This document shows positions 1-54,126 of a stretch of 64,000 bases of DNA, piece by piece. Every line of letters starts with the position of its first letter. The first letter of the stretch is position 1. The DNA lies in NCBI RefSeq assembly GCF_025526975.1, contig NW_026515668.1, positions 744,001 through 808,000 on the forward strand, in the 5' to 3' direction. Both the position numbers and the translations under genes were made by a program. The notes beneath the pieces are model-generated. The model saw nothing but the letters and a program-made list of their open reading frames with translations. It did not search any database and had not been told where the DNA came from. Origin of the DNA: Fimicolochytrium jonesii. Taxonomy: Eukaryota.

Positions 1-978
1 CGGCGACGAATGTGGGGACGACGCCGACCCGCGCGCATTCTGGCCGCGTGTTCAAACTTGCGTTTGACGAGACGCGGATCGTTAGTTGTAGTCAGGACCA
101 GGTATGATTCTGAACAGGAAACGAGTGGAATTTGGCTGCAGAAAAGCATCACTGACGTCTGTGTGTGTTCTGAAACCGAACAGACCATCATCGTCTGGGA
201 CTTTGCCAAGGGCGTTGATTCGCGATACTTTGTCTAGGACGGTCTGCGAACGCTTTCAACGAGCACCCCGATACCCCGAATATCATCCCACCATCCCACT
301 CAAGTCGACGATCTCATCGATGTTCGTCCCGTTCGCAGCGCGTACGCCCAACTTTGCTCAAAAGCTCTTGCACAACTCCGCTTTTGGATGTCCGGCGGCG
401 TTTATACCCCTCTTTGCGTCCCTGACACCATACCCGACTCCCAGCAACGGACAAGGGACACCGTGTCGTCGAATAGAAGCTCATATACCCACCCCATCAT
501 ACCCCATCAGGACACCAGCTCCGCGCATCCTCTCCCCTCACTCCCAAGAAAAGACAATTTGGCTTTCCTTAATGAGCGCGGCCCGGCACATCTCAACAAA
601 CACGCTTTCTGCCAGTCATCGCGTCGGACCGCATCCACTTCAGCGGTTTTCAGTGTACCGCCGGCATGTTACGAACCCTTTTTGTCTATGGTGTATACCA
701 CCTATAAAAGTTTTTGTGTTTTTTTTGTTCCTTCCCCCCGTGTAAATACACTCAAGTTTTTGGTTTCCCTTCCTACCGCATTCTTTGCATTTACTGGCCT
801 CCAGCAGGGGAGGGCTTCGGCAGTCAAAGTCGGAATGCAACCCAGAATGCAGGACATGAGAACACGGTCCACGCGATTGCGCCATGGCCCTCTTGTCCCT
901 CGGTGGCCGATATCTCCCGCGCAACTCACAGTTCCCCAAGCAGAAGCACTTCGCACACAACATCCACCACGACGAACC

Positions 979-1341
979 ATGTCCGCCAAAACCTTCACCC
1001 TCGAGCAAGTCGCCGAGCACAAGTCAGACTCGTCGGCCTGGGTCATCGTCAAGGGCAAGGTCTACGACGTCACGTCTTTCTTGGATGACCATCCAGGTGG
1101 CAAGAAGGTCCTCTTGAAGGTGAGTGTGTAAGGAAGCGGGGGGCGCCGACCCTTTCTGGGGTGACGGACGGATACGTGTACTGTACATTGATGGTCATAT
1201 GTGCTTACGGTTTTAATGGGTCAATAGAACTGCGGAAAGGACGCGACGAAGCAGTTTGAGCAGTTCCATTCCGACAAGGTTTTGGACAAATATGGGCCCA
1301 AGCTATATATCGGTGATGTGAAGACTGCCGCCAAGCTGTAG
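979..1341 (+). CDS. Small soluble cytochrome b5 (heme-binding domain), 2 exons, C-terminal AKL
   Basis: Exon 979-1119 encodes [14 protein letters not shown]...[19 protein letters not shown] intron 1120-1227. Exon 2 encodes [15 protein letters not shown]...TAAKL*. About 84 aa, with no membrane anchor. Confidence 0.9.
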
Positions 1342-1933
1342 ATACAGATACGAAGCGCTGCTTTGCATCGAGATGAGCTGGATGGGAGTGCAGGACTAGA
1401 TATTCCGGTTCGCCCACTGCACGATGGTCCGCCTGGACACCTGGGACTGACTTGAATGGAGGAGGAAAGCGAGCGGCGCTCGCTATGGGACCTGATGCGA
1501 GCGGAGGACTGTGTTCCGTAAGGCAGTGTCAGACGACACTTACAACCGCCTCCATGTCGTCGGCACTATAGAAGCTATTTCTGTCGTTACACTCGACACC
1601 ATCCCATATCCTTTGATTTCTTAATGTGATATCCTTGGGCAGGAAAAATATCATTTGACAAACGACGTAGGAATTGGAAGCTGTAGAAATCGGGAATCCA
1701 TCCCATCAAACCTGGCGATAATGGAAGATGCCACGTTGCTGTCCTTCCGGCTTCTCTGTATTGGGTAGCTAGCTAGTATGTCCTGTGCTATTGCGTATAT
1801 AGCTGTTGGAGTGTCTTCCCAGTCTCCCAGTGTCTTCCCAGTGTCTTCTGTGTACTGTATGTATATGTATTTGTCAGCTGCTGCCGTCACGGTGAGCCAA
1901 ATGCGCGGAAACGCGTCAACATTGAGATGCTGA

Positions 1934-3426
<1,493 letters not shown>

Positions 3427-7766: not shown

Positions 7767-8737
7767 TCACTGGGCGAGACCGGTCGGTGACGAAGCGGCA
7801 GCAGCCGGACTATGTATCCCCACGACCCCACCGGGCCCAGCACCCGGTGCCCCAGCCCTATTCTCATTCGTCAACGTCTTGATCAGCTCCTCCAGCGGGG
7901 CCAGCTCCTTCTTATCGATCAGCGCAAACTCCTGCACAAAAAACACAAAGTGCTTAAACGACGTATTCAGGTGCGCCTCCTCGCCCAGCGCGACGATCTT
8001 TGGGAAATGCGCGTGGTAGATATGCGCGTAAACTCTGAACAACCGCTTGAAGATATTTTTGACAATGCCCGGGAACGACTTCGGGAACGGCACGCCGATT
8101 TTGGAAGGAAAGATGGCTTCGTCGTCGAGTTGCGCTTGGACCCAGGTCATCAGGTAGTCGACGTATTCGGGCGCCGAGACTTTAACGGGTTTTTTGAACT
8201 GGACGCCGTCGCACCAGTGGTATTCGTATTTGGGGCCCGCGGACATGACGGGGCATTCGGAGGGGGTGCAGAATTCGGTGATTGTGCCGTAGAGCATGTT
8301 GATCTGGTTGAAAAAGTCAACGGTGTTGACTGCTAGCCACTCGTTCATGTCTTCGCCTTCCGGAAGGGAGACGGCGAGCCGAAGGTTACCGGAGCCGAGG
8401 GTTGCCTCTGCATATTTTTTGAGTTGATATTGTTTGGTGCCTTCGGGGATGTTCCGTTTTGGCTTGAACGTTTTGTTCTGTAAGACGTGAAGGACAGGGT
8501 TAGTGAAAATAACACATGGGGCGATTCTTTTGCGACGCACGGGGAGGACCGCTTTATCGCACCGCCGACCCCGTTCTTCTCGGGCTTTCCCAAGCGCTGA
8601 TAAAGTGCTCGATGCGCACCGGACATCCCAATGCTCCCCGGAAAGCCCTCAGTTTGACGCGCGATTGAGCACATTCGCGCGCCAAGCAGCCAGCTACACA
8701 GTCGGGTACATACCCCTTTTAACCCGAAGAAGCTCAT
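7767..8737 (-). CDS. MOB1: MOB kinase activator MOB1
   Basis: Short first exon MSFFGLKG, then KTFKPKRNIPEG, ATLGSGNLRLAVSLPEGEDMNEWLAVNTVDFFNQINMLYG and KRLFRVYAHIYH. Confidence 0.96.
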
Positions 8738-9407
8738 GGCGAACGGCGAGTGGAGGAGAGCGAGGTTGAATTTGCGAAGGGGTGGGAGTTACGGTCTTCC
8801 GAAGTGACTTATGCAGTGTGCAGGGAAGGCTGGTGAACTTTCAATTCCCCATTACGGCACACGAGACGGGACTGATCCAAGTGGAACGCGTGATGTTTAT
8901 CTCACAGGTCACGTGCGCAGACTGCCCTGTGAACATGCAACATGGGCAGAAGGGCTTTCCCAGACGAAATTTGGATTTTGCGGTGAAATCTGTGGGCTTT
9001 CATTGGAGTAGCAGCCGACACAAATAACAATTTTACCATGAATGTCAGTTGCGCCGATGGCCATTCCAATAATAAACGTCGAATATGCCTCTTTGCGAAG
9101 ATATTACAGTGTGCAATCGCAGTTTCATACACTTGACCAAGGCGCACGATGAATGTGTGCAAACAGAAAAATGCTAAGCTAATAACGACACGGCCAGCAC
9201 CACTTCAAACGTGCGGGACGGGGCGTTCGTTCGAGGTCGTGTGGTTCGGAGATTGGTTCCGCAACAAAACCGGCCGCTCTAGCACATTTCAAGAAATAAT
9301 AGATGATGTGGTCGAACCATCGCTGGTCGAGTGATATCGGTCGCTCGATCGACCGCGCGAAATCGAGCATCACGTCGTACTTGTCGTCCGGCGGCGGGGT
9401 AATTAGC

Positions 9408-10653
9408 TCAAGCGTACTCCGGACTTCCGAGCTCGCGCATTCTGTCCGCGAAGCACGCGCGTAGCCCCTCGTCCTCTAGCTCTTCCGCTTCGGTAGACAC
9501 GGTAAAGAAGCTTGCTGGATAGATGGCAAACGAGTCGAACGCCTCCACGTTTGCCCCATCCCAATCAAGGATCGCAGTTATATGACCACTCTCGGGATCA
9601 ACCATCACGTTTCCACTGTGCATGTCCGGATGGCAAATGAAACAAAGGCCACGGTGGGCGGTCGGACGTGCAGCACCTATGCGTAGAACAAGGTGCGACA
9701 CTATGGCGAGATTCTGCAGGATACTGCGTCGGACGGCGCCTGGTAGTGTGGCTCAGTACGATTGACAGCGCCTGAACTTGGTTATATGCGTACTCCTCCC
9801 AGTGTAAGTAGGGGCCCACATTGACGGCATGTGCACCTGCCAGTCTGATCGCTTGATCGTGTACGTCAGAAAATAGTGCCCCGACGTAATATTCGCCGTT
9901 CGGGGACAGGCGCAGGCCCCGGAGCTTCCGAAAGGGTTTTGCAAGGATCCGCATTTGCAAGTCTGCGAAATCGAGCAGTATTCTTTCCTTTAATTCGACT
10001 GGCGCACCCGGCCAAACAGCGTGCAACGGCTTGCCAGTTGTTTTCGCAAAGATGGCCGCATGTGGTGGTAGGTCGTGTGACGGAACGGGTCGTTCCCACC
10101 GAGGCCATATCAGCAGTGGTGCGGGAATTCCTACGGCCTCACAAAATCCGCTGGTAGCCGCGCAGCTGTTAAGCTGAGCTTTCCGTGATTTCTGAGCCCG
10201 TGCGGTATCTCGAATGGGAATCCGCACCGCCAGCGGTATGCCGTACCTGTCGGAGCCCTCGGTACGGCATTCGATTACAAGGCGGTAGCCTCCGCAACCC
10301 AGAACTCGGGTCAAGACCACGTCCGTTCCTGGTATGGCGCGGAGACTCCGTCGGAACCGCCGTCGCTTGAAACAGCCGAGGTGGGTGCGCAGAGCCGCCT
10401 TTAAAACAAGGAGTTCTTCTTCTTCTTTGCTTCCCTCTTCGCCTGCTTTGCGGCTTCCTTCTGCTCCCGGGAGGCTTGATGTTGCTGCCCCTTGACACAA
10501 GTCGGGCACTCCTCCGTTTTCAGGTGCGCCATGGAGTGCTCCAGGCATACTTTTTGATGATCGGGACAAAAGCGTTGGCCTGATATAGTCCGCGGTGTCT
10601 TTTGGCAAACAGGACAATGATGAACTAACCTTCCGACCCGAAGGAGGTGTCAT
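9408..10653 (-). pseudogene. APH/phosphotransferase (protein-kinase-like) family gene split over two frames
   Basis: ORF 9598-10653 has the Gly loop LGCGGYRLV. Overlapping ORF 9408-9701 has HPDMHSGNVMVD...ILDWD. No convincing intron joins them, so this is a frameshift near 9.7 kb or an assembly error. Confidence 0.65.
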
Positions 10654-10719
10654 ACCCGGTGACTCTGGTACGCAACTCCAGTGGTCTATGGCTGCAAAGC
10701 AGACAGAGTCCTAGGGCGA

Positions 10720-12420
10720 ATCGATGAAATTTCTCGAAAGCCCCAACACGAGAAAACTTCGAAAGAACTCCGTTATACGTTCGAAAATGGATTAGTACGA
10801 CACGAAGGATGTTTATACGTTCCTGAGGATATTCGCCCGAAGATTTTACGGAAATTCCATGACGAACTCGCCACCGGAGAACATCTCGGTGTTAAGAAGA
10901 CTCTCGCGAGAATTCTTACGGACTATTACTGGCCTACCGTACGCTCCGACGTCATCAAATACGTTGGAACTTGCAAAGCCTGTCGACAATTCAAACCTGG
11001 CCATCGTCGATACGGATTTCTTCGACCTCTTCCTATACCTTTTGGAAGATGGCACACGATCGATTTCGACATTTTCGAAGTAGATGAAACAAACTCTTGT
11101 CTCGTCTGCATTGATTACCTTTCCGGACGTGTGATTCTAACACCTATCAAGAAGACAATCACCGGACGCGAACTAGCCTGTGATGTGGACTACCTTCCAC
11201 ACGGGTTGTATAACTGATGTTCGTATACAATAACTACTTTGCTGTAAGGTATTGTAGACGGACTGGGTGTTTGTCGGCTCTGCTATGTGATATCTAGTAG
11301 AAGAACTACTTGTTGTGCATAGGAACGCGCGACGAGCACTGTTAAAGTACCATGTCGGAGTCCACTGGAGAACACTCTCAAAACGCATCATAGCCCAGGA
11401 AATACCTGTATGTGCCCATCACATACAGGTATTTTTCCCCAAGGCCTGTCTAACAGACGCAACGTGTCGTTCTCCAATAAGACCGGACACTCCACATTAC
11501 ATAGCCCAAGTCTTCTTAGAGCAGTATGGAAACATGTCGGTACGCCAAAAGTCTTCGTTACGGATCGTGAACCTTGCGCACTTTCCGATTTCTTCCTCGC
11601 ATTCGATATTCTCCTCGGTGTAAAACAAGAATTCGCTACGGCTCGTCATCAGCAAACCGATGACAAAGTTGAGCCAGCCATCCAAACCCTGAAAAGGATT
11701 TGGAAGCAATATCTCAACTACGACAAAAGCAATTGGAAGAAACTATTGCCTTTAATTGAATTCGCATACAATACCGCTCCGAGGGAGGAATATGAAGGTT
11801 TATTGCCATTTGAGGTAGATCTTGGACGCTCTCCAATCCTCCCGGGTTGGAATCCAACACTTGAAGGACAAGAACTCAAACTTCGAGCTGCGGATCAAAA
11901 CGAAATCGAACTCTTCAAGAAAGGGCAGGAAGACATCGCCCACATTGTACGCGAAAAGCTTCAGAGATCGCAAAATCAATTTGCACGTCAACGCGACAAA
12001 GGTCGAACGCCAATCGCATACAAAATTGGCGATCTCGTTGATCTGAATTGACAAGGAATCAACCTAGAAGTAGACGCTCGAAGAGGACTTTGATACTCAG
12101 CTATGTGGATCGGACCATTCAAAATCATCGCACTGGGAGCACATCCCGATACCTACGAACTCAATTTATCACCATTGAAGATCAGCGGCATCTTGCCCGT
12201 CTTTCACATCGATATTTTATGATCACATCACGAAGAGCAATATCCGCTACGTGCAGTTCCACAACCTCCTCCACCAATCAAAGAACGCGGACAACCTGAA
12301 TGGGTTGTAGAAGATATCATCGACGAGTGACGCGCCATACGAAATCTTCTAGTCAAATGGCTCGGTTATCCTGACCCTACCTGGGAACCCAAATCCGCAC
12401 TTTGCTACACGCCTGTCTAC
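10720..12420 (+). mobile_element. Degenerate Ty3/Gypsy integrase plus chromodomain remnant, 5'-truncated
   Basis: HHCC zinc finger (FHDELATGEHLG...CKAC), core TIDFD...VTDREP...HQQTD.KVE, GPF motif, and chromodomain PEWVVEDIIDE*...LLVKWLGYPDPTWEP. Contains stops and frameshifts. Confidence 0.9.
11179..11501. mobile_element. 323-bp solo LTR (or MITE-like insertion) nested in the integrase
   Basis: Termini TGTGATGTGGA...TCCACATTACA form an imperfect inverted repeat. A perfect 5-bp TSD TAGCC lies at 11174-11178 and 11502-11506. Excision rejoins GRELA|QVF. Confidence 0.85.
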
Positions 12421-12705
12421 AAACCATGGCGAAGAACTCATCCACAATCTTTGTGGATACGGAGACGAACAGCATAGAGCATCTCATATCACGTCACACG
12501 CGCGACGCCGCAAGAACCGCTCACTATCAATCACACCGATGACAATAGGGACGTAAACTACATCACATCACGCGCGGCGACGCAAGAACCGACCTTACAC
12601 ACACATATCATACACAACGTCAGCTTAGGGACGCCTTTGCCTCAAACACACACATCACACAGTGCGTCAACACTATAAAATGAACATGTTGTAGGCCGAG
12701 CAGAG

Positions 12706-13794
12706 CTACCGAGGGGCTCTATCGACCTTGGAAAAAACTCGAAGATTGATTTGTAGCAGTATTCGTAGTATTCCGGAGCTGACGGCGTCATCAAGAATTT
12801 CCGTAATGCGTGACCCAGCATCAACCTGATTGGCTGAACCTTGTTGTTGATTAGGTTGGCAACTGCGCTGCGGAATTTGAGCGCCACGACCGCGCTGCCA
12901 AAAACCGCCGCGTCGGTTCTGGGTTTGCGAGCCTTGCTGTTGATTTTCGGGATTTGACCAGCATTCATCTCTCCAATGTCCCATTTTGTTACAAAGGGGA
13001 CAAGGAGTCGTTGGACGTTGACGAGGAACGTGAGGAGTTTGCCATTGTCCACGTCGACGAAAGGGCTGTTGACGTTGGTAGGGAACTTGACCTGTGGTGG
13101 GACGACTCACTCCAGGGGGGTAGTATGACGTACCGAGAGCATTGAGCCCAAAGGTCATATCATCTAAGTCTTGCTTGAATTCCGTAATTCGAGGGTTGGT
13201 GCAAGGTGCAAATCGTCCGCCACGACCACCGCCACGACTACCTCGACCGCGACTGGCTCCACGGCCGCCAGGAGCACTTGTTGCCGAGGCAATCGGACGA
13301 GGTGTATTGGCGTGGTTGCCGTCAGTGAACCCATGAGCCACTTGAGAACGACGAGCTGCAGTGATAGCTTGATCGAGAGTGATAGGGGTGTTGATGTTGG
13401 TAGTGCTCGAGACTTCGAAGTTCGTAACGGCTTCAGTGAGATAATGACTGATTACCGTATTCTTGAGAAGACCGGCCTTGAAGTATCGAATTTGATTGAT
13501 AAGGGGAATGGTGCCTTGAGTGTTATCAAGATGATGAGCGGCTTCGAGCTCATTATTGGTGTCTTGAAACTCCTTGATATATTTTTCAAGAGAGTCACCG
13601 AGCTTGAGGCCGGAGAGCTTGAGCTCAATAGTATTACGCAAGTTGCAAGGATAAAAGTGAGCGACAAGAGCCGTTTCGAAAGCTGCCCAATTTGCGGGAG
13701 GTCCAGCGGCGTAAGTCGTATTGTACCACTCGAGAGCAGTACCCTTGAGATAGGTGGTGAGCGTAGGGGCGTACTCTGCCATAGTAAAGGCTAT
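12706..13794 (-). mobile_element. Truncated retrotransposon Gag (capsid plus CCHC zinc knuckle), cut at its 5' end by the LTR at 13795
   Basis: YLKGTALEWY...WAAFETALVAHF capsid motif, RGG-rich linker and CPLCNKMGHWRDEC knuckle. Opposite orientation to the neighbouring integrase remnant. Confidence 0.88.
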
Positions 13795-14340
13795 TGTTAT
13801 GGACGACGCGCCCATACCATAAGCTTACCTACTGACAGCCGCCAATGTCAACCGCCAAATGTCAAACGCCAATGTCAATGTCAATGTCAGTGTCAATGTC
13901 AGTGTCAATGTCAATGTCAATGTCAATGCCACTCCCCCTCTCTCCTCTCATTTTCGCCAATCCTCCCACAATATCGCCACTCCTCCTCTCTCCTCTCATT
14001 TCGCCAATCCCCCCTCGGCTTCTCCACACCCCCCACTACTTCCCCATAGCCAGCAGCTGTAGCAATGCTGTCTACGCTCGCCACGCACGCTCTAGGAGCA
14101 TAGCTGGCGCCCCCCCAGTCCCCTCTTGTTGTTGTTGTTCTCTGATCTGCTGGGTTGCCTATCTATAAATAGACGGCCTCTCTTCGTCCATTCCCTTCCT
14201 CCCCAGCAGATCAACACCAGTTCTTCTCATCTCCTGTTCTAGTCCATGTTTCTTGTTTCGCCAATACAATCTCTTGTCGCCTATCACTCTCGCCCTGACT
14301 TCTCTACTTCGCTTCCGCCTCCGTCGTCGAGATCATAACA
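13795..14340 (+). repeat. 5' LTR (546 bp) with internal (CAATGT/CAGTGT)n microsatellite and TATA box
   Basis: Runs TGTTATGGAC...GATCATAACA, with TATAAATA at 14164. Near-identical to 19308-19872 and, inverted, to 24182-24727. Confidence 0.97.
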
Positions 14341-14409
14341 GTTTGATCTGCTCCAACACTGCGAAGTTCAGAACCCGTCCAGCCCTGCATCCGACAAACC
14401 TTTTTCGCC

Positions 14410-15407
14410 ATGGCCCAACCCGAATCCGTACCTTTCACCGCCAAGCAATGGAACGATATGTGCCAAGCCATCGCCGCCTTGCAAAGCCAAAACGCCAAAT
14501 GCAGGCCAACCTAGCGCAAGCCCAAGCCGACGCACAAGCTGCCCAGAGCATCGCCGCCCAGGTTCAAGCCGATACGTACACCCGTCCCCAAGCCACCAAC
14601 CCTGCTCTGGAGCCAAGAATCAGCTCGCCCGAGAAGTTTGATGGTACCCGCAGCAAATTCCGTGGGTGGTTGAACAACATCCGGTTGATGTTTGCTCTCC
14701 AGCCCGACCGCTACCCCAGCGACATCATCAAGATCCAAACTATTGGCACCTACCTCACCGGCACTGCACAAGCCTGGATGGCGCCCCTAGTCGAACGCCA
14801 AGATCACAGCCTTCAGGACTTCGATAGTTTTATCAGTCAGATGCAATCGGTCTTCGGAGACAGCGACAGGGTCCGCACCTCTGAAAACAAGCTCCAGAAC
14901 CTTCGCCAAACCCGTGCAGCAACCGAGTACGTCGCTGAGTTCCGCCAGCTACAATGCGATGTCTCCTGGAACGACCAGGCCCTGATCGCTACCTTCCGCC
15001 GTGGCCTCAAAGAAGACGTCAAAGACCTGATGCTCACAATGCCCCCTGCGGCCACCATTGATGTGGTGATGGAGCAGGCTATCCAGTGCGATAACCGGCT
15101 GTTTGAGCGCCGCCTGGAGCGAAACAGAAGCCGCCAGACCTTCCCGGTTCCCCATACCTCGTTTACTACTACCACCACTGTCGACCACAGCGAGCCTATG
15201 CAGATTGACGCCGCTCGTCCCCGCGGCCCTCTGAGCCCTCAGGAACGCCAACGCCGCATTTCCAACAACCTCTGCCTTTACTGCGGTGGCGCGGGGCACA
15301 TTGCAAAAGTCTGCCCCGTCAAGAACAAGACCACCACCCGTGCCGCCAACGTCGACATCAAAGAACCCTCCACCGAACAGGGTTTTCCCAAAGTCCAGCC
15401 GCAGTAA
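14410..15407 (+). CDS. gag: Gag of the chromovirus (apparent frameshift near 14496)
   Basis: PEKFDGTRSKFRGWL, LTGTAQAW, LRQTRAATEYVAEF, EPMQID and CLYCGGAGHIAKVC. The ATG at 14410 (MAQPES...) is one base out of frame with the main ORF. Confidence 0.9.
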
Positions 15408-18400
15408 AGCCCCAGCGACTGGACAACACACACCGCCCCGGGCCTCCTAACCTCGCAGCTCCTGCAACGGGAGAGGCCACCCCCCTGGTTCCCGACTCCG
15501 TTATAGCCGACACAACCCTCCTAGCCGCTGCCCATGTCGAAAACTCCGAAATTAACCCCCGCGCCATGCTTGCGTTGGGTCCCGTCGAACCCTTCAACTA
15601 CCCCGTTACCATCATGGTATCATCCAGCCGCGCCCTGATACCTATCCTCAGCCATGATCGACAACGGTGCCCTGTCCTGCTTCATCGACAGAGACTTTGC
15701 CCGCAAACACCGCATCGCCCTAGTCCCACAGCAGCGTCCACTGACGATCGAACTCAGTTGACGGTCAACCCAGCTCTGCTGGGCCAATCACCCATCACAC
15801 CCAACCAGTAGGCATGTGGGTCGACGACCACTTCGAAGAACTCGTCTTCCATGTCACCAAATCACCCCATGCTCCAATCCTCCTTGGTCTCCCCTGGCTC
15901 CGCCTCCACGACATTAACCTTGACTTCAAGAACCTTTCGGTCGGTTTCCGTTGCGACTGTCTGTACCATGAATTCGCGAATTGGGACAACTCTCCAGCAC
16001 CCCCAAGCCCAGCACCCGCCAGAACCCCCGAGCCCTTGATCCGCATCCCCCAGGATGAAGTCCCCGTCGACGAAACATGGTCGATTCCAGTACCCAAGGT
16101 ATCTTGCTCCAGCACCCCAGAACCGGCTCCCACGCTGCTCCGAGTCTCGTTCATCTCTGCCCCAGCCTTCCGGGTCGCAGCAAGGCATGACCAGGTCTTT
16201 GTCGCCTACGCCAACCCTGCGAAACCCGATCTCCCAGCCTCGCCTAGCCCCAGTAACCCCCCGACACCCGAGAAAGACATCAAAGACTTCCTGCCCCCCG
16301 AGTAATCAAGACTTCGCCGACGTTTTCGAAAAGAGAAATGCTGACACTCTCCCCGAGCACCGGCCCTACGACTGTCCAATCGATCTGGAAGAAGGCAAGC
16401 AGCCACCTTTCGGCCCGATCTACAGCCTCAGCAAACCAGAAATGAAGGCACTCTGCGAATACCTCGAAGAAAACCTCGCCAAAGGATTCATCAAACCCTC
16501 AAAGTCCCCTGCCGGTGCGCCAGTCTTATTCGTGAAGAAAAAGGACGGTTCTCTCCGCCTCTGCGTCGATTATCGAGGCCTGAACAGCATCACGGTGAAG
16601 AATCGCTACCCCCTGCCCCTGATCAACGGTATCATGGATTGTTTGCGCGGCGCCCGCCGTCTCACCAAGATCGACCTCCGCGGCGCTTATAACCTCTTAC
16701 GCATGCGCCCTGGGCGATGAATGGAAGACCGCCTTCCGCTGCCGCTACGGCCTATTCGAATACAATGTCATGCCCTTTGGACTCAGCAATGCTCCTGGCG
16801 TCTTCCAGTACCTGATGAACGACATCTTCCGCGACATTCTCGATGTGTTTGTTGTCGTCTACCTCGACGATATCCTGATATTCTCCAAGAACCCCGAAGA
16901 TCACCCCAAACATGTCCGCGAAGTCTTGTCCCGCCTCCGACAGCATGGGTTGTACGCCAAACCAGAGAAGTGCGAATTCAACCGCGAATCCGTTGAGTTC
17001 CTAGGCTTCATCATCTCCAAGAAAGGCATCCAGATGGACCCCAAGAAGATCGCTGCCATCACGGATTGGGAACCTCCCAAGAATGTCAAAGGCGTCCAGC
17101 GGTTCCTCGGCTTTGCCAACTTCTATCGCCGATTCATCCAAGGTTATTCCAAGATCGCTACCCCGCTCACAGCCCTGACCCGGAAAGACATCCCGTACGC
17201 CTGGACACCCGCCGCAAACACCGCCTTCGAGAACCTGAAGAAAGCATTCACCACCGCCCCCATCCTTGCTCACCCTGACCCAGAGAAGCCCTTCGTCGTC
17301 GAAACTGACGCCTCCGACTTCGCTCTTGGCGCAGTTCTCCTCCAACCTGACCAGGACAATCAGCTCCACCCCGTGGCCTTCCACTCTCGCAAATTCACGG
17401 CCGAAGAGATCAACTACGAGATCTACGACAAGGAACTTCTGGCCATCCAAGACTCCTTTGCCCAGTGGCGCCACCATCTCATTGGCGCCCGTCACAAGAT
17501 CACCGTTTACTCCGACCACAAAAACCTTCAGTACTTCATGACCACCCGCACCCTGAACCGCCGCCAAGCCCGCTGGTCGATATTCTTCTCGGATTTTGAC
17601 TTTGTCATTACCTATCGCCCCGGTCCCCAGCAGCACCAAGCCGATGCCCTCTCCCGACGCTCCGAACATGAGCTAAAAGAGGGGGAAGAAGCGTTCCGCT
17701 CCCAGGCAACCACAATTTTGACTCCCGAACGCCTTCGACTCGCGGCTGCCTACCTCACACCCATGGATACCACGCTGCTTGACAAGATTAAGGCCGCCCA
17801 GGCCTCTGATCCCCTCGCTAAGACCATTCGCGAAAAGCTCAAGATACCCCTCGCCCAACGAACTGAGGAAACCCAAGATCGTATCAAGCGGTTCTCAGAT
17901 GAAGATGGGATCCTGCTGCACGATAACCTGGTCTATGTCCCCACCAACGAGCTCCGAGCTGAAGTCTGCCACGACATGCACGATACTCCCCTAGCCGGCC
18001 ACTTTGGGATGTCCAAGACGCTCGAACTCGCCTCCCGCAACTACTGGTGGCCCAGCCAGTGGCGCTTCGTCAAGGCCTACGTCAAGTCCTGCGATACCTG
18101 TAGCCAAGCGAAATCCAGTCGACACAAACCATACGGCCTACTCCAGCCCAACAGTATCCCTACCCGCCCTTGGGGATCTTGGTCCCTGGACTTTATCACC
18201 GGTCTGCCTCCCGTGGACGGGTACGACTCCATCCTGAACGTCAACTGTCGCCTCACCAAGATGGCCCACTTCATCGCCTGCAGCGAGTCAGAATCCGCCG
18301 AATCCACCGCCGACCTAGTCTTCCACAACATCATCCGTCTCCACGGCCTCCCCGACGACATCATCTCTGACCGAGGACCCCAGTTTAAGTCCCGGTTCTG

Positions 18401-19295
18401 GCGTCGACTTCTCGAACTCCTTGGGGCAAAAGCCAACCTCTCCTCGGCCTTCCACCCCCAGAGCGATGGCCAGACGGAACGCACCAACCAGATCCTGGAG
18501 CAGTATCTCCGATGCTTTTGCAACCACCAACAGGACAACTGGAAACAGCTTCTGTCGTCCGCCGAGTTCGCCTACAACAACACCCATCAGTCCGCCTCCC
18601 AGACCACCCCCTTCTACGCCAACAAGGGTCTCCACCCCCGCTTCAGTTTCGCGGCCTCTGCTACCTCCGAATCCGTCAACCCCGCCGCTGAAGCCCGCGC
18701 TAAACAAATCAGGGAAGTCCATGAACAGCTCGCCCTCGAGCTCAAGGAAGCCCAAGATCAAATGAAGCGCTACGCCGACGCCAAACGAATTCCTGGACCG
18801 GACTTCAAGCCTGGCGACCACGTCTGGCTCCTCCGCAAAAACCTCCATACAACCCGGCCCTCTCAGAAACTCGACCATCGCAAGATTGGGCCATTCCCCA
18901 TCGTTGAAAAAATCAATCCCGTCGCCTACCGGCTCAAGCTCCCGCCTACGTACAAAATCCACGATGTCTTCCATGTCTCGCTCCTCGAACCCCGCTTCAC
19001 CATCCCCGAACGACACGAACCCGAACCCGCGCCCCCAGAGACCGTTGAGGGTCAAGAAGAGTGGGTTGTCGAAGCCATCCTTGACTCTCGCATCCATTGT
19101 CGTCGCCTTCAGTACTTGGTCAAATGGCAGGGCTGGACTGACTCCGAGAACACCTGGGAGCCCGTGGAACACCTCACCCATACCGACGCACTCCTCCAGG
19201 ACTTCCACAGCGCGTACCCCAACAAGCCTTCCTCTGTCCCCGTAGCACCTCCTCTGCGGCCACACCAAACTCGACGCCGCCGCCGCCGCCGCTAA
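15380..19295 (+). pseudogene. pol: Pol polyprotein (protease, RT, RNase H, integrase, chromodomain), frameshifted in its 5' third
   Basis: Protease AMIDNGA (~15651) and [19 protein letters not shown] and YLDD. RNase H TDASDFA. Integrase HHCC plus DDE. Chromodomain EWVVEAILD..YLVKWQG. Indels near 15645, 16303 and 16715; 16770-19295 is open. Confidence 0.93.
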
Positions 19296-19307
19296 AGAGA
19301 GGGGTGA

Positions 19308-19872
19308 TGTTATGGACGACGCGCCCATACCATAAGCTTACCTACTGACAGCCTGCCAATGTCAACCGCCAAATGTCAAACGCCAATGTCAATGTCAATG
19401 TCAGTGTCAATGTCAGTGTCAATGTCAATGTCAATGTCAGTGTCAATGTCAATGTCAATGCCACTCCCCCTCTCTCCTCTCATTTCGCCAATCCTCTTGC
19501 AATATCGCCACTCCTCCTCTCTCCTCTCATTTCAGCCAATCCCCCCTCGGCTTCTCCACACCCCCCACTACTTCCCCATAGCCAGCAGCTGTAGCAATGC
19601 TCTCTACGCTCGCCACGCACGCTCTAGGAGCATAGCTGACGCCCCCCCAGTCCCCTCTTGTTGTTGTTGTTCTCTGATCTGCTGGGTTGCCTATCTATAA
19701 ATAGCCGGCCTCTCTTCGTCCGTTCCCTTCCTCCCCAGCAGATCAACACCAGTTCTTCTCATCTCCTGTTCTAGTCCTTGTTTCTTGTTTCGCCAATACA
19801 ATCTCTTGTCGCCTATCACTCTCGCCCTGTCTTCTCTACTTCGCTTCCGCCTCCATCGTCGAGATCATAACA
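19308..19872 (+). repeat. 3' LTR (565 bp)
   Basis: TGTTATGGAC...GATCATAACA directly after the PPT. Longer microsatellite and roughly a dozen differences from the 5' LTR. Confidence 0.97.
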
Positions 19873-20202
19873 GCGCTGGTGTGGGCAATCTGACCTTGAC
19901 GCATTCACCGTGTTAAATCAGGTTGGTCCGCTAGAGCGGTCTGCATCAGACACCTTTCTCTAGCAGGCACGCAGAAGCACGCACACCTTACACACCACAC
20001 AGCGGCACATAACATGCAGATCGATGCGCCGATATGCTCGTACAACCCCTACCTGTACAACCCCTACCTGTACAACCCCAACATGTACTGCTCCCCCCAA
20101 TAAACCCCGCGCTCCAATAAAATCCTCCTTCTCCGTTTCCTCCATCTTCGTGTCGATACAAATCAGAATGGGTCAGCGCAATCGTTCTAAAGTCTGCAAT
20201 CG

Positions 20203-21487
20203 CTATAAAGACTCAGCAAGCCCAAGGACGCGCCCGGCAGCAACGACACCCTCCTCCCGCAACAACCGTTCGACTTGTTTTGCCAGCTTCTCGTTGATTT
20301 GAACGGAGGTCCCGAGGCGATTGGAGTCGTTGCCTCTGACGGACAACGTGGTTGCGTGTACATCCTCAGGCCCTCGCCAAACAATCTCGACTACGCCGTC
20401 GCACGCATCAAAATCCACATACACACGATAGTCCGCATTTACAAAGACTCCACCATGACAGGCGAATCCATCCGCCTTGCTCTTCAGCTTGCCCGTTGTG
20501 TTCGAGACTGGGAACCAGATTCCGTATGTGAGTTTCGATGTGTTGTTATCGCGGTGGAATTTATTGGCAAAGTCATCCCATGTGGCGGTGATATTGCTGG
20601 CGAAGGAGTCATCCGCGACGAGGTCCCCGAATTCCGCTTGTGAAATAGTAGGCACACGCAGTTCCTTTGCCCGCTTTTTGATGCGAGAAAAGAGGTAAGG
20701 GGAAAGCTTATTGAGGAAGTAGATGTAATGCGCCTCAATCTTTGGTAACTCAGCTTGCAAGGCGGCCCACTTCTCCCTGCTAACGGAATCCTTTTTTCGT
20801 GGTTGATAGATGCCCATGCTTTTTCCACTATCTGTACCCACACGCCAGCCAACACCGATCATGGTACCAGACGTCTGTGTACCATTTATCGTCACAGGGT
20901 AAGCTAACTGACGCTGGTGGTCGAGGTGGAGCGCAATCTCCTCAAAACGGGTCCTGTCATCCGCTGACATATCCGCAAACGGATGAAACCTTGCCGCAAA
21001 TACAATCTCATCCGTTTGCCTGTCGGCTACAACAAGGATGTCCTTGTAGAGACGGGTGTACGGGTGATCGTGATCAACTTCCCTGGTATATTGCTTGAGG
21101 AAGTCTTCGTGCGTAAGGTGCTTTCCAAACGGATGCGGGCTGGTTTGCTGCTCAGTCTTTCTTGTTGCCCAGAATATGTACGCACTGTCGCCGGAACCTG
21201 TGGCACAAGGCCATACAACAGTTGGTCAGTCGCGTTGGTTGAGACGGTCAGTCGCGTTGGTTGAGACGTGTCTGACAGCATACGTAATGAAACGAACCTT
21301 GGTCAACACTTCTATGCTCAGCTCCAGCCTCGGTATCACCCGCCGTCTTCAGTATCCTCCGCATGTTTTCATTCTTTTCTTGTTTGCGCTGTCGGTTTGC
21401 CGCCTTTCCCCTTGCCCAATCGGCTCCGGAACGTCGTCGCGGCTTTGACTTCGACCCTGGCTTTGACGTTGATGCTGATTCTGTCAT
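20203..21487 (-). CDS. TET/JBP-family (Tet-like) 2-oxoglutarate/Fe(II) dioxygenase, 2 exons, ~394 aa
   Basis: Exon 21487-21298, intron GTTCGT...CCACAG (21297-21198) and exon 21197-20203 give an uninterrupted 1185-nt CDS. Motifs FASNITAT, FANKFHRD (HxD), GGVFV, EIVWRG..DVHATT (distal H) and NRLGTSVQ (2OG-binding R). Basic N-terminus. Confidence 0.8.
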
Positions 21488-21589
21488 GCTGATTTGCCTG
21501 GTGAATGGAGTATGTAAATTAGTTGGGGCGGAGTACGTAGGTTGTCCCAGGAGCATTGGAGTGGGTTTGTGACGTAGAATGGCAAACAA

Positions 21590-21695
21590 ATCGCGAGGCT
21601 GCCCCTATTCCGGGCTGTCTCGGGCGATCGCGAGTCGAGAAGGTTGCTAAGCGTATCGCGAGGCTGCCCCTATTCCGGGCTGTCTCGGGCGATCG
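21590..21695. repeat. Two exact 41-bp direct repeats upstream of the TET-like gene
   Basis: ATCGCGAGGCTGCCCCTATTCCGGGCTGTCTCGGGCGATCG at 21590-21630 and 21655-21695. Confidence 0.92.
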
Positions 21696-21710
21696 GTTTT
21701 GGTAATGTGT

Positions 21711-22349
21711 ACGCTCGTGCTTATTACAGCCTTCACGCTCGGCCTTACGCCCACGCTCGGCCTTATTACAGCCTTCACGCTTGGCCTTATGACAGCCTTC
21801 ACGCTCGGCCTTATAACAGCCTTCACGCTCGGCCTTATCACAGCCTTCACGCTCGGCCTTATTACAGCCTTCACGCTCGGCCTTATGACAGCCTTCACGC
21901 TCGGCCTTATTACAGCCTTCACGCTCGGCCTTATTACAGCCTTCACGCTCGGCCTTATTACAGCCTTCACGCTCGGCCTTATCACAGCCTTCACGCTCGG
22001 CCTTATTACAGCCTTCACGCTCGGCCTTATTACAACCTTCACGCTTGGCCTTATGACAGCCTTCACGCTCGGCCTTATAACAGCCTTCACGCTCGGCCTT
22101 ATCACAGCCTTCACGCTCGGCCTTATTACAGCCTTCACGCTCGGCCTTATTACAGCCTTCACGCTCGGCCTTATTACAGCCTTCACGCTCGGCCTTATTA
22201 CAGCCTTCACGCTCGGCCTTATTACAGCCTTCACGCTCGCCCTTATTACAGCCTTCACGCTCGGCCTTATTACAGCCTTCACGCTCGGCCTTATTACGGC
22301 CTTCACGCTCGGCCTTATGCCCACGCTCGGCCTTACGGCCTTCACGCTC
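21711..22349. repeat. 24-bp tandem minisatellite, ~26 copies
   Basis: Unit CCTTATNACAGCCTTCACGCTCGG with shortened units near both ends and no spacers. Confidence 0.97.
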
Positions 22350-22727
22350 TCAGCGCCGTGGTTTGCCATTTGGTACGGCTGGTACGTAGGGGGTAGGCAC
22401 TACTACCCCAGAATTCAATTTCCCACATCCAAAAAACGAATCATGGCTCGAGTCCTGCAACATAGGGCACTCAACTCTCCTCTTCCGCTTATGCAGATAC
22501 CGATAGACATCCATGTGCAGTATTCATGTTCGAGCTGGAGATGAGATATGGTGGGTGATCAATGATGACTGATGAGGCTTTGCGAAAAACCGGAGATCAA
22601 ACGGGAACAGGATGGTTGACGGAAACAGGATGGTTGCACGGTAACGGGATGGTTGGACGGAAACGGGAGACGCAAGGATGGGATGCGGAACTGCCACCTT
22701 GTTGCTACAGGCGTCCCTCTGTCTGAT

Positions 22728-25437
22728 ATGAAAGTGAGACTGTCGCACACGGGAGGAGAGCGATGGTGGAGGAGAGGAGGGGTAGCTGGCAGGTTGTGCC
22801 GGGACTCCAGGACTCCCGCACTTGCAGAACATTCCCACTTGCACATCTTCATGCACATCCTCACGCTGGTCTCTTGTTTTACAGACTAAGCGACGAAACG
22901 AATCTGAAGGGGAGGGGAAGCGGACAAAGCGGGCAACAGCGGTACACGGATTCAGTCGTTTTAATACACTTCTGAAGCAAGATGCAGTCGGAATCATCTC
23001 ACGCTTCAACCTCAACGTCGAATCCGCGGAGGAATATGCCACAACAATTGCGCACCCCGACACAAGCCGTATCAGGTGGATAAACGCATGACGAAAACAT
23101 CTATATGACCAGCTCAGAGCGGGAGAGAAGGAGGCGATCGAAGGGATTCCGTTGTCCCCAACTCCAACTCCAACACCAGCCCATGCCCTTGACATGTTAC
23201 TGAGCGCCGCGAAACATCTCCTCACTTACGCCGATTCCAGTATCGAATTCGGATTGTTTACCTTTGATCACACTACAGAGTGCGCAACAGCAACAGGGAC
23301 ATCTCCGATGCTGTGTGCGACGCTTAGTGACGGGTCAGCTAAAGCTGATAATGTTTGTCAGCGAATCAAGACCCATTTTCGCACACTTGCACGTAAGTTA
23401 CATGCCGTTGTCCTCATGCTCCGTGTGTCTGTCCTCGGCCACTAATCAGGGATATTATAGAAACCGCTTCATGCCCCCCCAAACGCCGCATGTACTTTAC
23501 CTCCAGGGAGGATGTCGTCGCGTTTGTCAAAGAGTGCTACAATCAGGCATTCGTGAAGGAGTGTCACCAAACACATTTTTGCGAGATATTGGCCTTCCAT
23601 GAGAGGTACCCATATGCGAGCGGGTGTCCGCCATATCATCCATACTTTGGCGCGCTGGCCAAAGCAAAAATGGATCAAGGTCAGCGAGACGTGTGGGGAA
23701 TGTATGCCCCCTACCTGGAATTCAAGTGGCGCAAAAAGGGGCAGAAGCTGTCTCTAGGTAAGGCGACCGGACCGTGTTCCCGCATGCATTGACACAGCAC
23801 ACTCACCTATGTATCATAGACGACATTTTTGCTCCGGTTCTCCCAAATGACCCTCTCGCTATGCGGCCCAGGGCGCGGATCCACCAGTTTCTTGACAAGG
23901 CTGCATGGGCACAGAGCCTGGAAGGAGATCACGATCACCAGCCCACACCAACACCTGGCCCAACCCACACTACCACACCCAGCGCCATCTCAAACCCCGA
24001 CATTGGTTTTGCTTTTGGCAGAGTTGACGACGGCGGCGGCGGTGTTGAAATCGTGGCAGGCAGCGGCGGCGGTGGCAGCGGCGGCGGTGGAGTTGAGGGA
24101 GTTGACGAGGACCAGGCGCGACAGATGATGAACACTGATGCTTGTCTCTGGATATATAGGTGGTGCGCGTTGTTACAAGCCTGTTATGATCTCGACGACT
24201 GAGGCGGAAGCGAAGTAGAGAAGACAAGGCAAGAGCGATGGGCGACAAGAGATTGTATTGGCGAAACAAGGGACAAGGACTAGAACAAGAGATGAGAAGA
24301 ACTGGTGTTGATCTGCTGGGGAGGAAGGGAATGGACGAAGAGAGGCCGGCTATTTATAGATAGGCAACCCAGCAGGCCAGAGATCAACAACAACAAGAGG
24401 GGACTGGGGGGGGCGCCAGCTATGCTCCTAGAGCGTGCGTGGCGAGCGTAGAGAGCATTGCTACAGCTGCTGGCTATGGAGAAGTAGTGGGGGATGTGGA
24501 GAAGTAGTGGGGGATGTGGAGAAGCCGAGAGGGGATTGGCGAAATGAGAGGAGAGAGGAGGAGGGGCAATATTGCGGGAGGATTGGCGAAATGAGAGGAG
24601 AGAGGGGGAGTGGCATTGCCATTGACATTGACACTGACATTGACACTGACATTGACATTGACATTGGCGGTTGACATTGGCGGCTGTCAGTAGGTAAGCT
24701 TATGGTATGGGCGCGTCGTCCATAACAAAGCCAGGTCATCACGGCACCCAACCATTTATCCGCCACTGCTAGCCGTTGGATCCACTTGGCTCCAAAGTGT
24801 CAAAATGGCACGGAGATCCAATGTCCCTATTTGGGTTGTTCCGGTAAGAAAAGTTACTTAACCGTACCGTACTTAACTAAACTAACCTTCCTTTTTTTTG
24901 TTTGATGTTAAGCGGTCTGTCAACATCGCAGAGTACAACATACTGCTATCCCCAACAAACCCAGACAATCTGCATTGGGTCCTGTTTGCGATACTCGTCG
25001 CGGTGCCGGCGCCCAAGTCCGCAAAACCCCTGGGCCCCCCTGGTGCGCCATTAACCAGACACGAAAACCTATCCATAGTTTTATTTGACTCCAAGGCTTG
25101 CCCAGGCGACAAGTACCACATTGATAAGATGGCCAATATCGGCTCCATCTTGTGGGATTGGTACACCAGGGCCACTGAAGCCCCCCTCAACGACGCACCG
25201 ACACCGACGGTTGACGCCCTCTTCACGCCTCGACAGACCAATGACCAGAACTGCGGTACATTTGTGTGCATGATGGCCGATGCCATTGCCCGTGGTGCGG
25301 TGGGTGAGGTCTCAGAATCATGGTCCGATACGCAGACCGCCGTCAATGCCCGCCATAATATCGCTCTGAGCATCGTTTTGGCGACGTTTCTTAATGAGGG
25401 GGATGCTCATCAGTATATGAATGTGACAAAGTGCTAG
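22728..25437 (+). pseudogene. Multi-exon gene ending in a Ulp1/SENP (C48) cysteine peptidase domain, disrupted
   Basis: Last exon has NLHWVLFAI, LFDS and PRQTNDQNCGTFVC (H-D-Q-C catalytic set). In-frame TGA at 23089-23091 and a solo LTR at 24182-24727. Start position approximate. Confidence 0.78.
24182..24727 (-). mobile_element. Solo LTR of the same family as 13795-19872, inverted
   Basis: Reverse complement of the LTR, with perfect 5-bp TSD AAGCC at 24177-24181 and 24728-24732. Confidence 0.96.
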
Positions 25438-25710
25438 ATCTCTGGTGACTGTAGCCATAGTCCCTTCAATAGCATCATTGTACAGTAGTAGTCAAAATGC
25501 CGTACAAACATCGGCCACGCTTCGGCCAGGTCTACACAAAAGATCCAGTCCTGATCAGGGCTGCTGCCGGATTCACCTGGAATATACCGGCGGCCACAAC
25601 GAATGTGTTGAACTTCGGCGCATCGAGTCCAGAAACCGTCACAGTAACCGGATATGGCTTGATGAACTTCATTATTTCTGGAGGTGCCGTGCAGCCAACC
25701 TTCCAATGTC

Positions 25711-25901
25711 AACCCTAACCCAAGAGAGGTGACCTAACACTCCCAAGACCCGAGTTAGGGTTGCGGGTAGGGTTAGGGTCGTTGCGGGTTGTGGTTAGGG
25801 TTAGGGTTAGGGTTGGGTTAGGGTTAGGGTTGTGGGAAAGGAAAATGTGCTCGTACAGCGTTGCGCCAATAATGAAAAGGGTTAGGTTAGGGTTAGGGTT
25901 A
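25711..25901 (+). repeat. Interstitial telomere-like repeats (TTAGGG and variants)
   Basis: Short AACCCTAACCC, then degenerate GGTTAGGGTTAGGG tracts at ~25756-25831 and 25878-25900. Confidence 0.9.
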
Positions 25902-25911
25902 TATCCTGTGC

Positions 25912-25950
25912 GAAATTCTACCAAGTGCGGGTAAACGGCGGGAGTAACTA
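25912..25950 (+). other. 39-nt fragment of the LSU (28S) rRNA H68-H69 region; not an rRNA gene
   Basis: GAAATTCTACCAAGTGCGGGTAAACGGCGGGAGTAACTA matches the conserved eukaryotic LSU sequence GAAATTCAACCAAGCGCGGGTAAACGGCGGGAGTAACTA (recalled) at 37/39. Confidence 0.88.
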
Positions 25951-26420
25951 CATACAGAGTCCATTCGGCAGCGTTGTTAGGTTGAGGATTGTTTTGAGGG
26001 GGGTGGGGTGAGGGGTGTTGGGTAAGCGGAGGGAGAGTAGATGTTGATGACGCCGGTGTCGGAGCTGGGGGGTGGGGGGAATCGGGTTAGGTGTGTGCGA
26101 GAAGGGGTTTGATGGGGATGAACTCGTTACCCTGTGGCGATCAAGTCGGTGCTGTAATATGTTTGTCAGAAAGTAAGGCGACGCATAGAAATCACGCCGT
26201 CACATGTCCTGTGGTCCTGTTGGCTCAGCCCTTGGCTCTCACAACAAGCTCAAAACCCAACAGAACTTCCAGCTGCCGAGCTGCCCAGGATACATTTACT
26301 CCCATTTAGACATCCGTACCTTGGCGCATCTCAAGACAACGACGCAAAGCAGCAACTGGTTGGTTATTAAGGACTGTGCAGCGACCAGCCCTTTGAGAAC
26401 AAAGCTATTACCTCCGCCAG

Positions 26421-28186
26421 ATGCCTTCACCTCCGAAGCCTTGGGAAGTTTCTGGAGCCGCAGGAGGGGCAGGTCCAGTTCCAACCGCAACAACAACGAG
26501 CGCTGCGCCGGCGAGTGCAGCACAGTCAGGACAAACAACGGCTTCCACTGCTGGTCCACCTCCTGTACCAACGCGACCGGACTCCGCTTCTGTAGCTTCC
26601 GCTGGTAAGTTGCACTCCTAGCGGAATTGCGCCTCAAGTATTGTGATTGACGATGCTGTTTTCCTGTAGGATATTCTTCGACCATGTCTGGTTACAATAG
26701 CGGGTATGGCGCTAGCCCATACGGAAGCCAGATGGCCAGTCAATACGGAACGCAGTATGGGGCAGGTTATGGGTCAACACTGTCGCCTTACGCCTCCCGC
26801 TACGGCGCAGGTTCAACATACGGAGGATACGGGTCGACCTATGGAAGTACATACGGAGGTGGATACGGAGCAGGAGGATACGGGGGCGTCGGGGGCTATT
26901 CGAGATATGGGGGCACAGGCTACGGGACTATGCCGTACAATCGATTCGGCGGAGGTCCGCCTTATGGACCAGGCGGGCCCGGGGACATGCCCCTATCCGC
27001 GCAACTCGAGCAATCCACGCAGGCCACGTTCAATACCCTCGACTCGATCGTGCAGGCATTTGCTGGGTTCGCACAGATGCTGGAGTCGACGTTCATGGCC
27101 ACACACTCGAGCTTCATGGCCATGGTCGGGGTGGCTGAGCAGTTCGGGAACTTGAAATCGTACTTGGGCCAGCTATTCTCCGTGATGTCGCTGTACAGAC
27201 TCGCAAAGAGGATATACTGCAAGCTCACGGGCAGAGCGCCGCCCGTGGACGTGGCATCGTTGAACGCGGATTCGTTCAAGGATTTCCAGGAGGGGAAAGA
27301 TGGGAAGAAGCGAAGCAAGAAACCTCTTTGGGTGTTCCTCCTGTTCACCATCGGGATTCCTTACGCAATTTCGAAGCTCTTCCAGCGTCTGCAAAAGCAG
27401 CGATTGGAAGCGGCTGCCAACGCTCCCGAGGGGGCCCTCCCACTGGTCGGCCCCGATGGAAACCGTCTAGGCCCGCAAGAAATCCGAAACCTCGATTTTG
27501 GCCGCGTCCTCTACGACTTCAATGCCGAGAACCCCGGTGAATTGTCCCTGCCGAAGGGGGAGATTGTTGCAATCTTGAGCAAAATCGACCCAGCCACAGG
27601 CCAGCCGGGACTGTGGTGGCGAGGCCGCTTGCAGGCGGGGCAGATGGGGATGTTCCCTGCCAATTATGTCGAGTTGATACCCAAGAAATTCCCCGTAAAT
27701 GATGCGGAGATACTGCAACCCATGAGGGAAGCGCCGCAACCGCCGACTTCATTTACTGGTCTTGGGGCTACCAACCTCGCTGCCCCAACGACGGTACCAA
27801 CCGTATCACAGCTAGCTGATCCCGCGCAGCCGGCACACATTCCGCCTCAGACAACCACCATACCAGCACAAACACCACAAGCCATACCCAGCCAACCGCG
27901 ACCCGCCACCCCATCGTCAACCGTCTCCACACCATCACAACAGCTCGCACCACCAAAACTTCCCCCACCAGCGAAATCCACTGCGCCCAAAAAGCCATGG
28001 GAGATAGCAGCATCAACCCCGCCGACTTTCAAGCCGCCATCTTCCATGGGCAACGGTTCCCTAGCACCAGCGACACCCGCCGCGGCGGCTCCGCCGGGCC
28101 CAAAATCGGACCCGCTGCCGTTTGACCCGGCGGAAATCAACGAAGGACCTGAGAATACGCGCTTTGGACCGTCGCTTGTGACTTGA
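26421..28186 (+). CDS. PEX13: Peroxisomal membrane protein PEX13, 2 exons
   Basis: N-terminal MPSPPKPWE and YG-rich region. STQATF..LDSIVQAFAGFAQMLESTFMATHSSF. TM segment, then SH3 (LYDF...WWRGR...GMFPANYV). Intron ~26606-26670. Confidence 0.96.
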
Positions 28187-53432: not shown

Positions 53433-53757
53433 GAGGGCGTTTCTCTGCAACCCTCGTTGCCTTCACTAGCCCCCGCCTATTGATATATATCAACTTCGTT
53501 TAGGTGCCACCCTTACGTAGTCAAGATCTATCCTTAACGTCCCCATTTACTGTAACTGCTCTCAAAATACATGATTCTTTTTTGGGAAGTGACGGGCGGA
53601 CGACTGGTGCTGGAAAGACACGCCGGACTACCTGTTGGGGTGTTTGTACAGTTCAGCCGGGGGTTTTTGATTGCCGTGGTAGCTGTGTGTCAAAACTCTC
53701 GCCTCAGTGCTGTGGTAATGAAGCTGCAATGGGTGATTGGAGGGTCTCTGTCATGCG

Positions 53758-54126
53758 ATTAGGGTTGGGGATTAGGGTTATCACCGGGTTAGGGTTGTGA
53801 GGTTGGGATTAGGGTTGATAGCCCTAACCGGGATTAGGGTTGGGGATTAGGGTTATCACTGGGTTAGGGTTGTGAGGTTGGGGATTAGGGTTGATAGCCC
53901 TAACTGGGATTAGGGTTGGGGATCAGGGTTATCACCGGGTGAGGGTTGTGAGGTTGGGGATTAGGGTTGATAGCCCTAACCAGGATTAGGGTTGGGGATT
54001 AGGGTTATCACCAGGTTAGGGTTGTGAGGTTGGGGATTAGGGTTGATAGCCCTAACCGGGATTAGGGTTGGGGATTAGGGTTATCGCCAGGTTAGGGTTG
54101 TGAGGTCGGGGATTAGGGTTGATAGC
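53758..54126 (+). repeat. 76-bp telomere-derived minisatellite, ~4.9 copies
   Basis: Units start at 53758, 53833, 53909, 53985 and 54061. Each has up to four TTAGGG, and full units carry one inverted CCCTAAC. Confidence 0.95.

Follow-up and report, generated by a model that had tools for sequence, protein, structure and literature searches.

An apparent 15-kb transposon nest ending in a short 28S rRNA fragment upstream of PEX13 in the chytrid Fimicolochytrium jonesii

A 39-nt piece of 28S rRNA in Fimicolochytrium jonesii appears to form the flush right end of a single 15,239-bp insertion, because the 12-mer that stands directly after it recurs at 10700-10711, the opposite border. The insertion, hereafter the island, holds retrotransposon remains together with genes for a TET-like dioxygenase and an Ulp1-type protease. 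We consider it somewhat probable that the 28S piece was a passenger brought in with the whole block, either as old rDNA flank or as filler from repair. Dispersed rDNA scraps beside transposons are of a known kind, and the island is a new and well-bounded instance of it; we located no report of this junction or structure in the open-access literature. Its value is modest, as a probable case in which a scrap of rDNA and the debris of transposons entered a gene of an early-diverging fungus together. The empty site can be tested, and the island points to a family of transposons with TET genes in a chytrid, a lineage outside the 2025 survey of such elements.

The 28S piece is identical at 37 of 39 positions to the fungal-type 28S of two metagenome loci, L029 (positions 65-103) and L001. 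The window, which is the whole 64-kb stretch of DNA analysed here, offers a second-best placement of only 24/39, and the maximum score in 50 shuffled windows is 25/39. The last matching base is 25950, where the piece reads ...GGGAGTAACTA, and in the fold of intact 28S from locus L006 this base is position 5 of a 7-nt hairpin loop. We take this hairpin to be helix 69. An earlier note on this DNA had described a 37/39 rRNA match that stops abruptly at the edge of an island; the same identity was found again, the stop falls inside the hairpin loop, and the edge is now set by the 12-bp duplication. Searches with six rDNA loci did not recover the downstream 28S half anywhere in the window, and an Rfam scan gave no LSU match for the 39-nt piece, a very short query.

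Telomere-like repeats lie to the left of the 28S piece in several blocks (Table 1). The (TTAGGG)n tract that had been read before the rRNA match is present, but it contains only two perfect TTAGGG units and one TTAGG. The accompanying remark that telomerase healing does not fit stands, with the G-rich strand 5' of the 28S piece. A second TAGGGTT-rich array occupies 53757-54126, with a 76-nt unit in 4.9 copies (95% matches) and one inverted CCCTAAC per unit. It is intergenic, downstream of a monooxygenase-like gene and without rDNA, and neither a terminus nor a duplication was found around it.

Both borders of the island carry a copy of the 12-bp repeat. The sole counterpart of 25951-25962 with at most one mismatch, on both strands of the 64 kb, is 10700-10711, which differs at one base and shares 9 bp exactly. 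The duplication call is based on a single near-match noticed after the fact, to be set against a background in which 14 of 63,839 other 12-mers find a counterpart as good within the 120-nt border zone (about 2 in 10,000 per start); in a looser 9-mer test, six of 531 tiles were positive, the true tile included. Together with the reading of the flanks, the repeat suggests that 10712-25950 arrived as one insertion with a 12-bp duplication. On the left, the insertion ends in the middle of a gypsy pol without any terminus. This border is bracketed rather than pinned, because pol homology detected by BLAST begins at 10771 only. By register, the amino acids that the left copy encodes might also be part of gypsy pol, and the copy itself could represent microhomology with the gypsy sequence.

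The surrounding sequence is fungal and intron-bearing, and its nearest named protein matches come from F. jonesii. A minus-strand kinase frame starts after a stop at 10700-10711, where the plus-strand gypsy pol takes over, and the insertion site lies in what may be an interrupted minus-strand host gene. In the reconstructed empty site, an ATG at 25964-25962 replaces the stop of the 370-codon left frame, a 1-in-16 coincidence, its G being part of the repeat; in addition, a donor at 26130, a branch site at 25980 and an acceptor at 10692 would combine into one intron across the empty site. No homologues of the left-flank frames, the small overlapping frame included, were found (all atlas matches scored below 0.9), and codon scores did not discriminate between the two left-flank frames as the real gene.

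Table 1. Coordinates of the island, its contents and its flanks in the window
Feature	Position	Strand	Remarks
MOB1 gene	7770-8740	-	left of the island
Headless frame of 370 codons and frameshifted kinase of APH type (left flank)	9300..10711	-	PF01636, E 4.4e-7
Small Cys/His-rich frame with Lys/Glu-rich tail	10401-10649		overlaps the kinase frame
Left copy of 12-bp duplication, CAGACAGAGTCC	10700..10711	+	11/12; border from host-like sequence to gypsy pol
Whole insertion (apparent), 15,239 bp	10712..25950	.	between minus-strand gene remains and PEX13 upstream region; from the duplication and reading of the flanks
5'-truncated gypsy pol, integrase to chromodomain	10712..12650	+	PF17921; left end of the insertion
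323-bp TG..CA insert inside gypsy pol	11179-11501		TAGCC on both flanks
Truncated gag of a different LTR element	12706..13794	-	PF03732
Full-length Ty3/gypsy chromovirus	13795..19873	+	near-intact; LTR differences 10/546
TET-like 2OG-Fe(II) dioxygenase frame, 340 open codons	20203..21225	-	PF20515, E 9.3e-52
24-nt tandem array, ~26 copies	21711..22349	.	between TET and Ulp1 genes
Broken spliced gene ending in Ulp1 (C48) protease domain	22786..25437	+	PF02902, E 1.9e-8; 5' limit uncertain
Solo LTR of the chromovirus family	24182..24727	-	clean 5-bp duplication AAGCC
Inverted copy of telomere-like repeat	25710-25723		
Degenerate GTTAGG array, 13.5 units	25754..25831	+	70% matches
Short TTAGGG block	25878..25901	+	adjoins the 28S piece
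Candidate end of the transposon, minus-strand CACAGGATATAACC	25897..25910	-	GTG at 25908-25910; resembles TET+ EnSpm starts
28S rRNA piece	25912..25950	+ (sense)	37/39 against L029/L001; right end of the insertion
Right copy of 12-bp duplication, CATACAGAGTCC	25951..25962	+	flush with the 28S piece
PEX13 host gene	26422..28186	+	PF04088, E 9.5e-44; right of the insertion; start codon read from sequence

The interior of the island is a nest of elements of several families. The full-length chromovirus is likely a recombinant of two insertions, because its flanks, GCTAT and GCGCT, do not match and form no duplication. Its reverse transcriptase (RT) is the sole one within the island. The solo LTR of the same family, which differs from the LTRs of the full element by 26 substitutions in 525 columns, splits the Ulp1 gene; this gene is further damaged by an in-frame stop at 23089-23091 and by an internal deletion compared to its paralogs. 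Of the six frames of the 24-nt array between the TET and Ulp1 genes, five are open. Among the 63 island frames scanned, a subset of those of at least 50 codons, none matched a transposase or recombinase family.

The TET and Ulp1 genes have paralogs on, in all, three other F. jonesii scaffolds, and the two genes are therefore probably parts of a dispersed multi-copy element, the remnant of a DNA transposon. The TET paralog P0001, on another scaffold, matches at 95% over 98 aa, and paralogs of the Ulp1 gene (P0003, P0009 and P0004) lie on two other scaffolds. An atlas lead from residues 1-150 of P0009 to the EnSpm accessory family PF03004 scored 0.77, below threshold, and the assignment of the element to the EnSpm superfamily is unproven. 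TET genes ride on eleven fungal DNA-transposon lineages (PMC12730594), and the TET+ EnSpm elements of fungi are described there as 22-27 kb long with CAC..GTG ends and 3-bp duplications, the starts of those in rusts reading CACCAGGG or CACCACGG (PMC12730594, Table S1).

The right end of the element in the island may, ambiguously, be the GTG at 25908-25910, an end of the CAC..GTG EnSpm type, where the candidate CACAGGAT resembles the two rust starts. If the element ends there, the TTAGGG blocks would be subterminal repeats and the 28S piece an earlier flank. The candidate terminus is weakened because 28S itself has a GTG at this spot, two bases ahead of GAAATTC in most loci compared; the triplet might therefore be 28S sequence that has lost one base. 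No inverted partner of the candidate was found in the window (4 matches against 3.6 expected). We regard the degenerate TTAGGG blocks, the inverted copy included, as likely subterminal repeats of the TET and Ulp1 element.

Compared to the TET+ EnSpm elements of rusts (CMCT; Kojima 2025, PMC12730594), the island has a PF20515 dioxygenase that by eye resembles the PU type, and both have multi-copy genes with a TET/JBP gene in dispersed copies. They differ in that the island has neither a CMC transposase nor a left end in the window and is bordered by a 12-bp duplication rather than a 3-bp one; its host is a chytrid, and an Ulp1 gene is not mentioned in the accessible part of that survey (PMC12730594). 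The same part of the survey lists TET+ transposons of rusts, mushrooms and Pezizomycetes only, with 'chytrid' occurring 0 times (PMC12730594). No report of a TET transposon in a chytrid was located in the open-access literature. Iyer et al. 2014 reportedly may cover chytrids.

These features can be assembled into a sequence of events for the passenger reading that we favour. The TET and Ulp1 genes would be the remnant of a DNA transposon with the TTAGGG blocks as its subterminal part and an end at about 25910. This end would have become joined to 28S DNA in one of two ways, either as flank retained from a copy once sitting in an rDNA unit, or as a 28S scrap patched onto the transposon end during repair. 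The block would then have broken within gypsy pol on the left and within the helix-69 loop on the right, and been joined into a staggered break in the 5' part of the minus-strand host gene; fill-in of the staggered ends would give the 12-bp repeat. Before or after this step, LTR insertions and LTR-LTR recombination would have removed the rest of the transposon, including its transposase. The flank and filler origins of the 28S piece are not distinguishable here. Capture of rDNA flank at an earlier site, as the earlier note had suggested, is kept within the favoured passenger reading, as one of its two origins. Decay of several percent throughout (2/39 in the 28S piece, 1/12 in the repeat and 26/525 in the solo LTR) fits an old event.

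A likeness to the favoured passenger reading is found in yeast, where breaks capture Ty and rDNA donors and complex insertions that join two to four fragments occur (PMC10802722). Like those described there, the island is a retrotransposon and rDNA composite without element termini at its outer joints, whereas it is far larger, old and fixed, and has a 12-bp duplication and later nesting. A length of 15 kb is very large for break capture, and about 8.6 kb remains without the chromovirus and its solo LTR; no precedent of such size was found in the literature.

An unlikely alternative is a tailless or chimeric retrocopy, for which a LINE-type RT would have copied into the site a piece of 28S RNA cleaved within the helix-69 loop, making the 12-bp duplication; the transposon and LTR elements would have nested in it later. 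Tailless retrocopies are described with duplications of 8-35 nt, a range that includes 12 bp, and with 3' ends located in loops (PMC5322556); the 28S piece likewise ends in a loop and is in sense orientation. Moreover, primates are known to have chimeras of 28S and LINE-1 (bioRxiv 2025.02.02.635956), and sense orientation and 5' truncation are shared by the fragment of gypsy pol at the left end. The likeness to these retropseudogenes and chimeras comprises a sense rRNA fragment, the lack of a tail, an end in a loop and a duplication of 8-35 nt (PMC5322556; bioRxiv 2025.02.02.635956). The island, however, lacks the priming match typical of tailless copies, in which 2-18 nt of the RNA end agree with the target, its left flank ending in AAAG and the piece in ACTA, and it places 15 kb of intron-bearing, two-way DNA between the repeats. 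No LINE was present among the island frames scanned, and the retrocopy would require that something inserted later at the 28S piece, or no more than a few bases from it, and that the left end of the transposon was lost.

A bolder form of the flank origin, which we think quite unlikely, is that a chytrid TET and Ulp1 DNA transposon with telomere-like subterminal repeats has a preference for 28S rDNA at a position some 50 nt upstream of the R2 site, and that the block came out of the array still bearing 40 nt of its flank, severed in the helix-69 loop. If true, fungi would have a DNA transposon of a kind other than Pokey that targets 28S, and the rDNA niche would gain a second DNA-transposon lineage and a new site.

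Improbable, in our judgement, is the att-like or target-mimicking end proposed in the earlier note, in which the 39 nt would be the built-in, Dada-like end of an rDNA-seeking element seen here in an off-target, one-ended copy. The 28S piece is flush with the duplication, and it ends 9-14 nt upstream of the R2, I-PpoI and Pokey sites. One-ended insertions are described for Dada (PMC3706591), and in metagenome contigs L017 and L029 28S is broken at the identical base. Against this proposal, the left end lies in the middle of pol, the downstream 28S half is missing, and no transposase or tyrosine recombinase occurs in the 63 frames. Furthermore, the 12-bp duplication exceeds the 6-7 bp of Dada (PMC3706591), the piece has decayed by two substitutions, and the host site is unlike 28S in sense.

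The analogy with Dada had also been overstated, as the shared sequence amounts to subterminal inverted repeats of 7-9 bp that also occur in U6/U1 rather than to a 39-nt target copy, for elements that target snRNA and tRNA genes with 6-7-bp duplications (Kojima and Jurka 2013, PMC3706591). The accessible text of a 2022 survey adds 5S to these targets and names Pokey, not Dada, for 28S (PMC8869645); similarly, a review table lists Pokey as the DNA transposon in 28S, with LTR elements in spacers among its fungal rows (PMC10946416). The island resembles Dada in lacking terminal inverted repeats and in recalling its one-ended insertions beside RNA-gene pieces (PMC3706591, PMC8869645). It differs from Dada in other respects. 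Dada has a DDE transposase with CCCC and CCHC fingers, whereas no transposase family was found in the 63 frames (Pfam may lack a Dada model, and the element is partly lost); Dada sits inside an RNA gene with both halves flanking it, whereas the window has no downstream 28S half; and its targets are snRNA, tRNA and 5S genes rather than 28S (PMC3706591, PMC8869645). Pokey, a piggyBac element, and R2 occupy the same 28S neighbourhood as the island piece (PMC10946416), the R2 junction region having been shown in 28S (PMC3774820), but the island contains neither a piggyBac transposase nor a TTAA duplication, and no frame with RT and a restriction-like endonuclease adjoins the 28S piece. Two further candidates found no support: a group I intron in 28S, with no Rfam match and no resumption of 28S in the window, and an att-type element of the tyrosine recombinase kind, with no recombinase gene in the frames scanned and no core shared by both junctions.

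The metagenome contigs were scanned, without control positions, for 28S that does not continue with T at this base, which yielded 32 rows from 29 loci. In fourteen loci 28S carries on past the base, altered by a substitution or by noise, two end at a contig edge, and six are short or tandem copies that extend past the site. Four loci, three of them distinct (L011/L028, L014 and L016), have an intron-like insert five bases before this point; its initial letters imitate the exon, and 28S picks up again after 413-908 nt. The remaining three (L017, L029 and L025) break at this base. Three breaks in 29 loci show no hotspot, because the scan sees only this position, and for the target-like end they amount to breaks at one base with no enrichment shown. 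Blastn and tblastn of the 29 loci against the island found nothing shared beyond the 28S piece, so that L017 and L029 have no further DNA or protein similarity to it; an Rfam scan covered eight of the loci. TTAGGG within 30 nt of the 28S stretch occurred 0 times in the metagenome contigs, which also counts against a target-like end. Viral contigs gave no match to the TET protein, to the candidate terminus or to the 28S motif.

About as doubtful as the target-like end is an origin by error or chance, in which the junction would be an assembly chimera, or the 12-bp repeat would be fortuitous and the 28S piece an unrelated orphan scrap beside the element. Short dispersed copies of the 28S stretch do occur in other genomes (7 of the 29 loci). 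A chimera, however, would be expected to carry intact 28S letters, whereas the piece differs at 2 of 39 positions from three fungal-type copies, which are metagenome references and not the host's own 28S; a chance repeat is opposed by the background of about 2 in 10,000 per start given above. Least credible is a relic telomere, interstitial or at a healed end, fused to rDNA, for although TTAGGG units are present and some fungi have their rDNA arrays close to chromosome ends, the G-rich strand is 5' of the rDNA and not 3' of a break, the units are degenerate and split into blocks of both orientations, an 11-nt spacer separates the repeats from 28S, and the array at 53757-54126 has similar repeats without rDNA.

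Several of the metagenome loci have architectures of their own. In L017, 28S is broken at the same base, and the 1.9 kb that follow (128-2055) contain, close to either end, repeats of the GCCATAAG type in both orientations. This insert has the look of a non-autonomous DNA transposon that sits within rDNA or next to it; its first seven bases are the reverse complement of the 28S letters spanning the break. The fungal-type 28S of L029, broken at the same base, is followed by 3 kb (104-3178) with a spliced gene that encodes a CCHC-like knuckle and belongs to no Pfam family, and an Ulp1-like look of its segment 202-393 was unconfirmed by Pfam and tblastn. The intron-like inserts of L028 (2505-3015), L016 and L014 stand after GGGAGT, and their first five bases copy the downstream exon; L028 has five Rfam group I matches elsewhere and two frames that by eye resemble His-Cys homing endonucleases. 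Degenerate copies of the region from helix 69 to the R2 site form inverted arms outside 28S genes in L015 (701-890) and L026 (286-400), tandem copies of the same region occur in L002, L010 and L021, and L024 has one copy in a 5S repeat. The copies in these six loci are possible decoys or element-derived targets.
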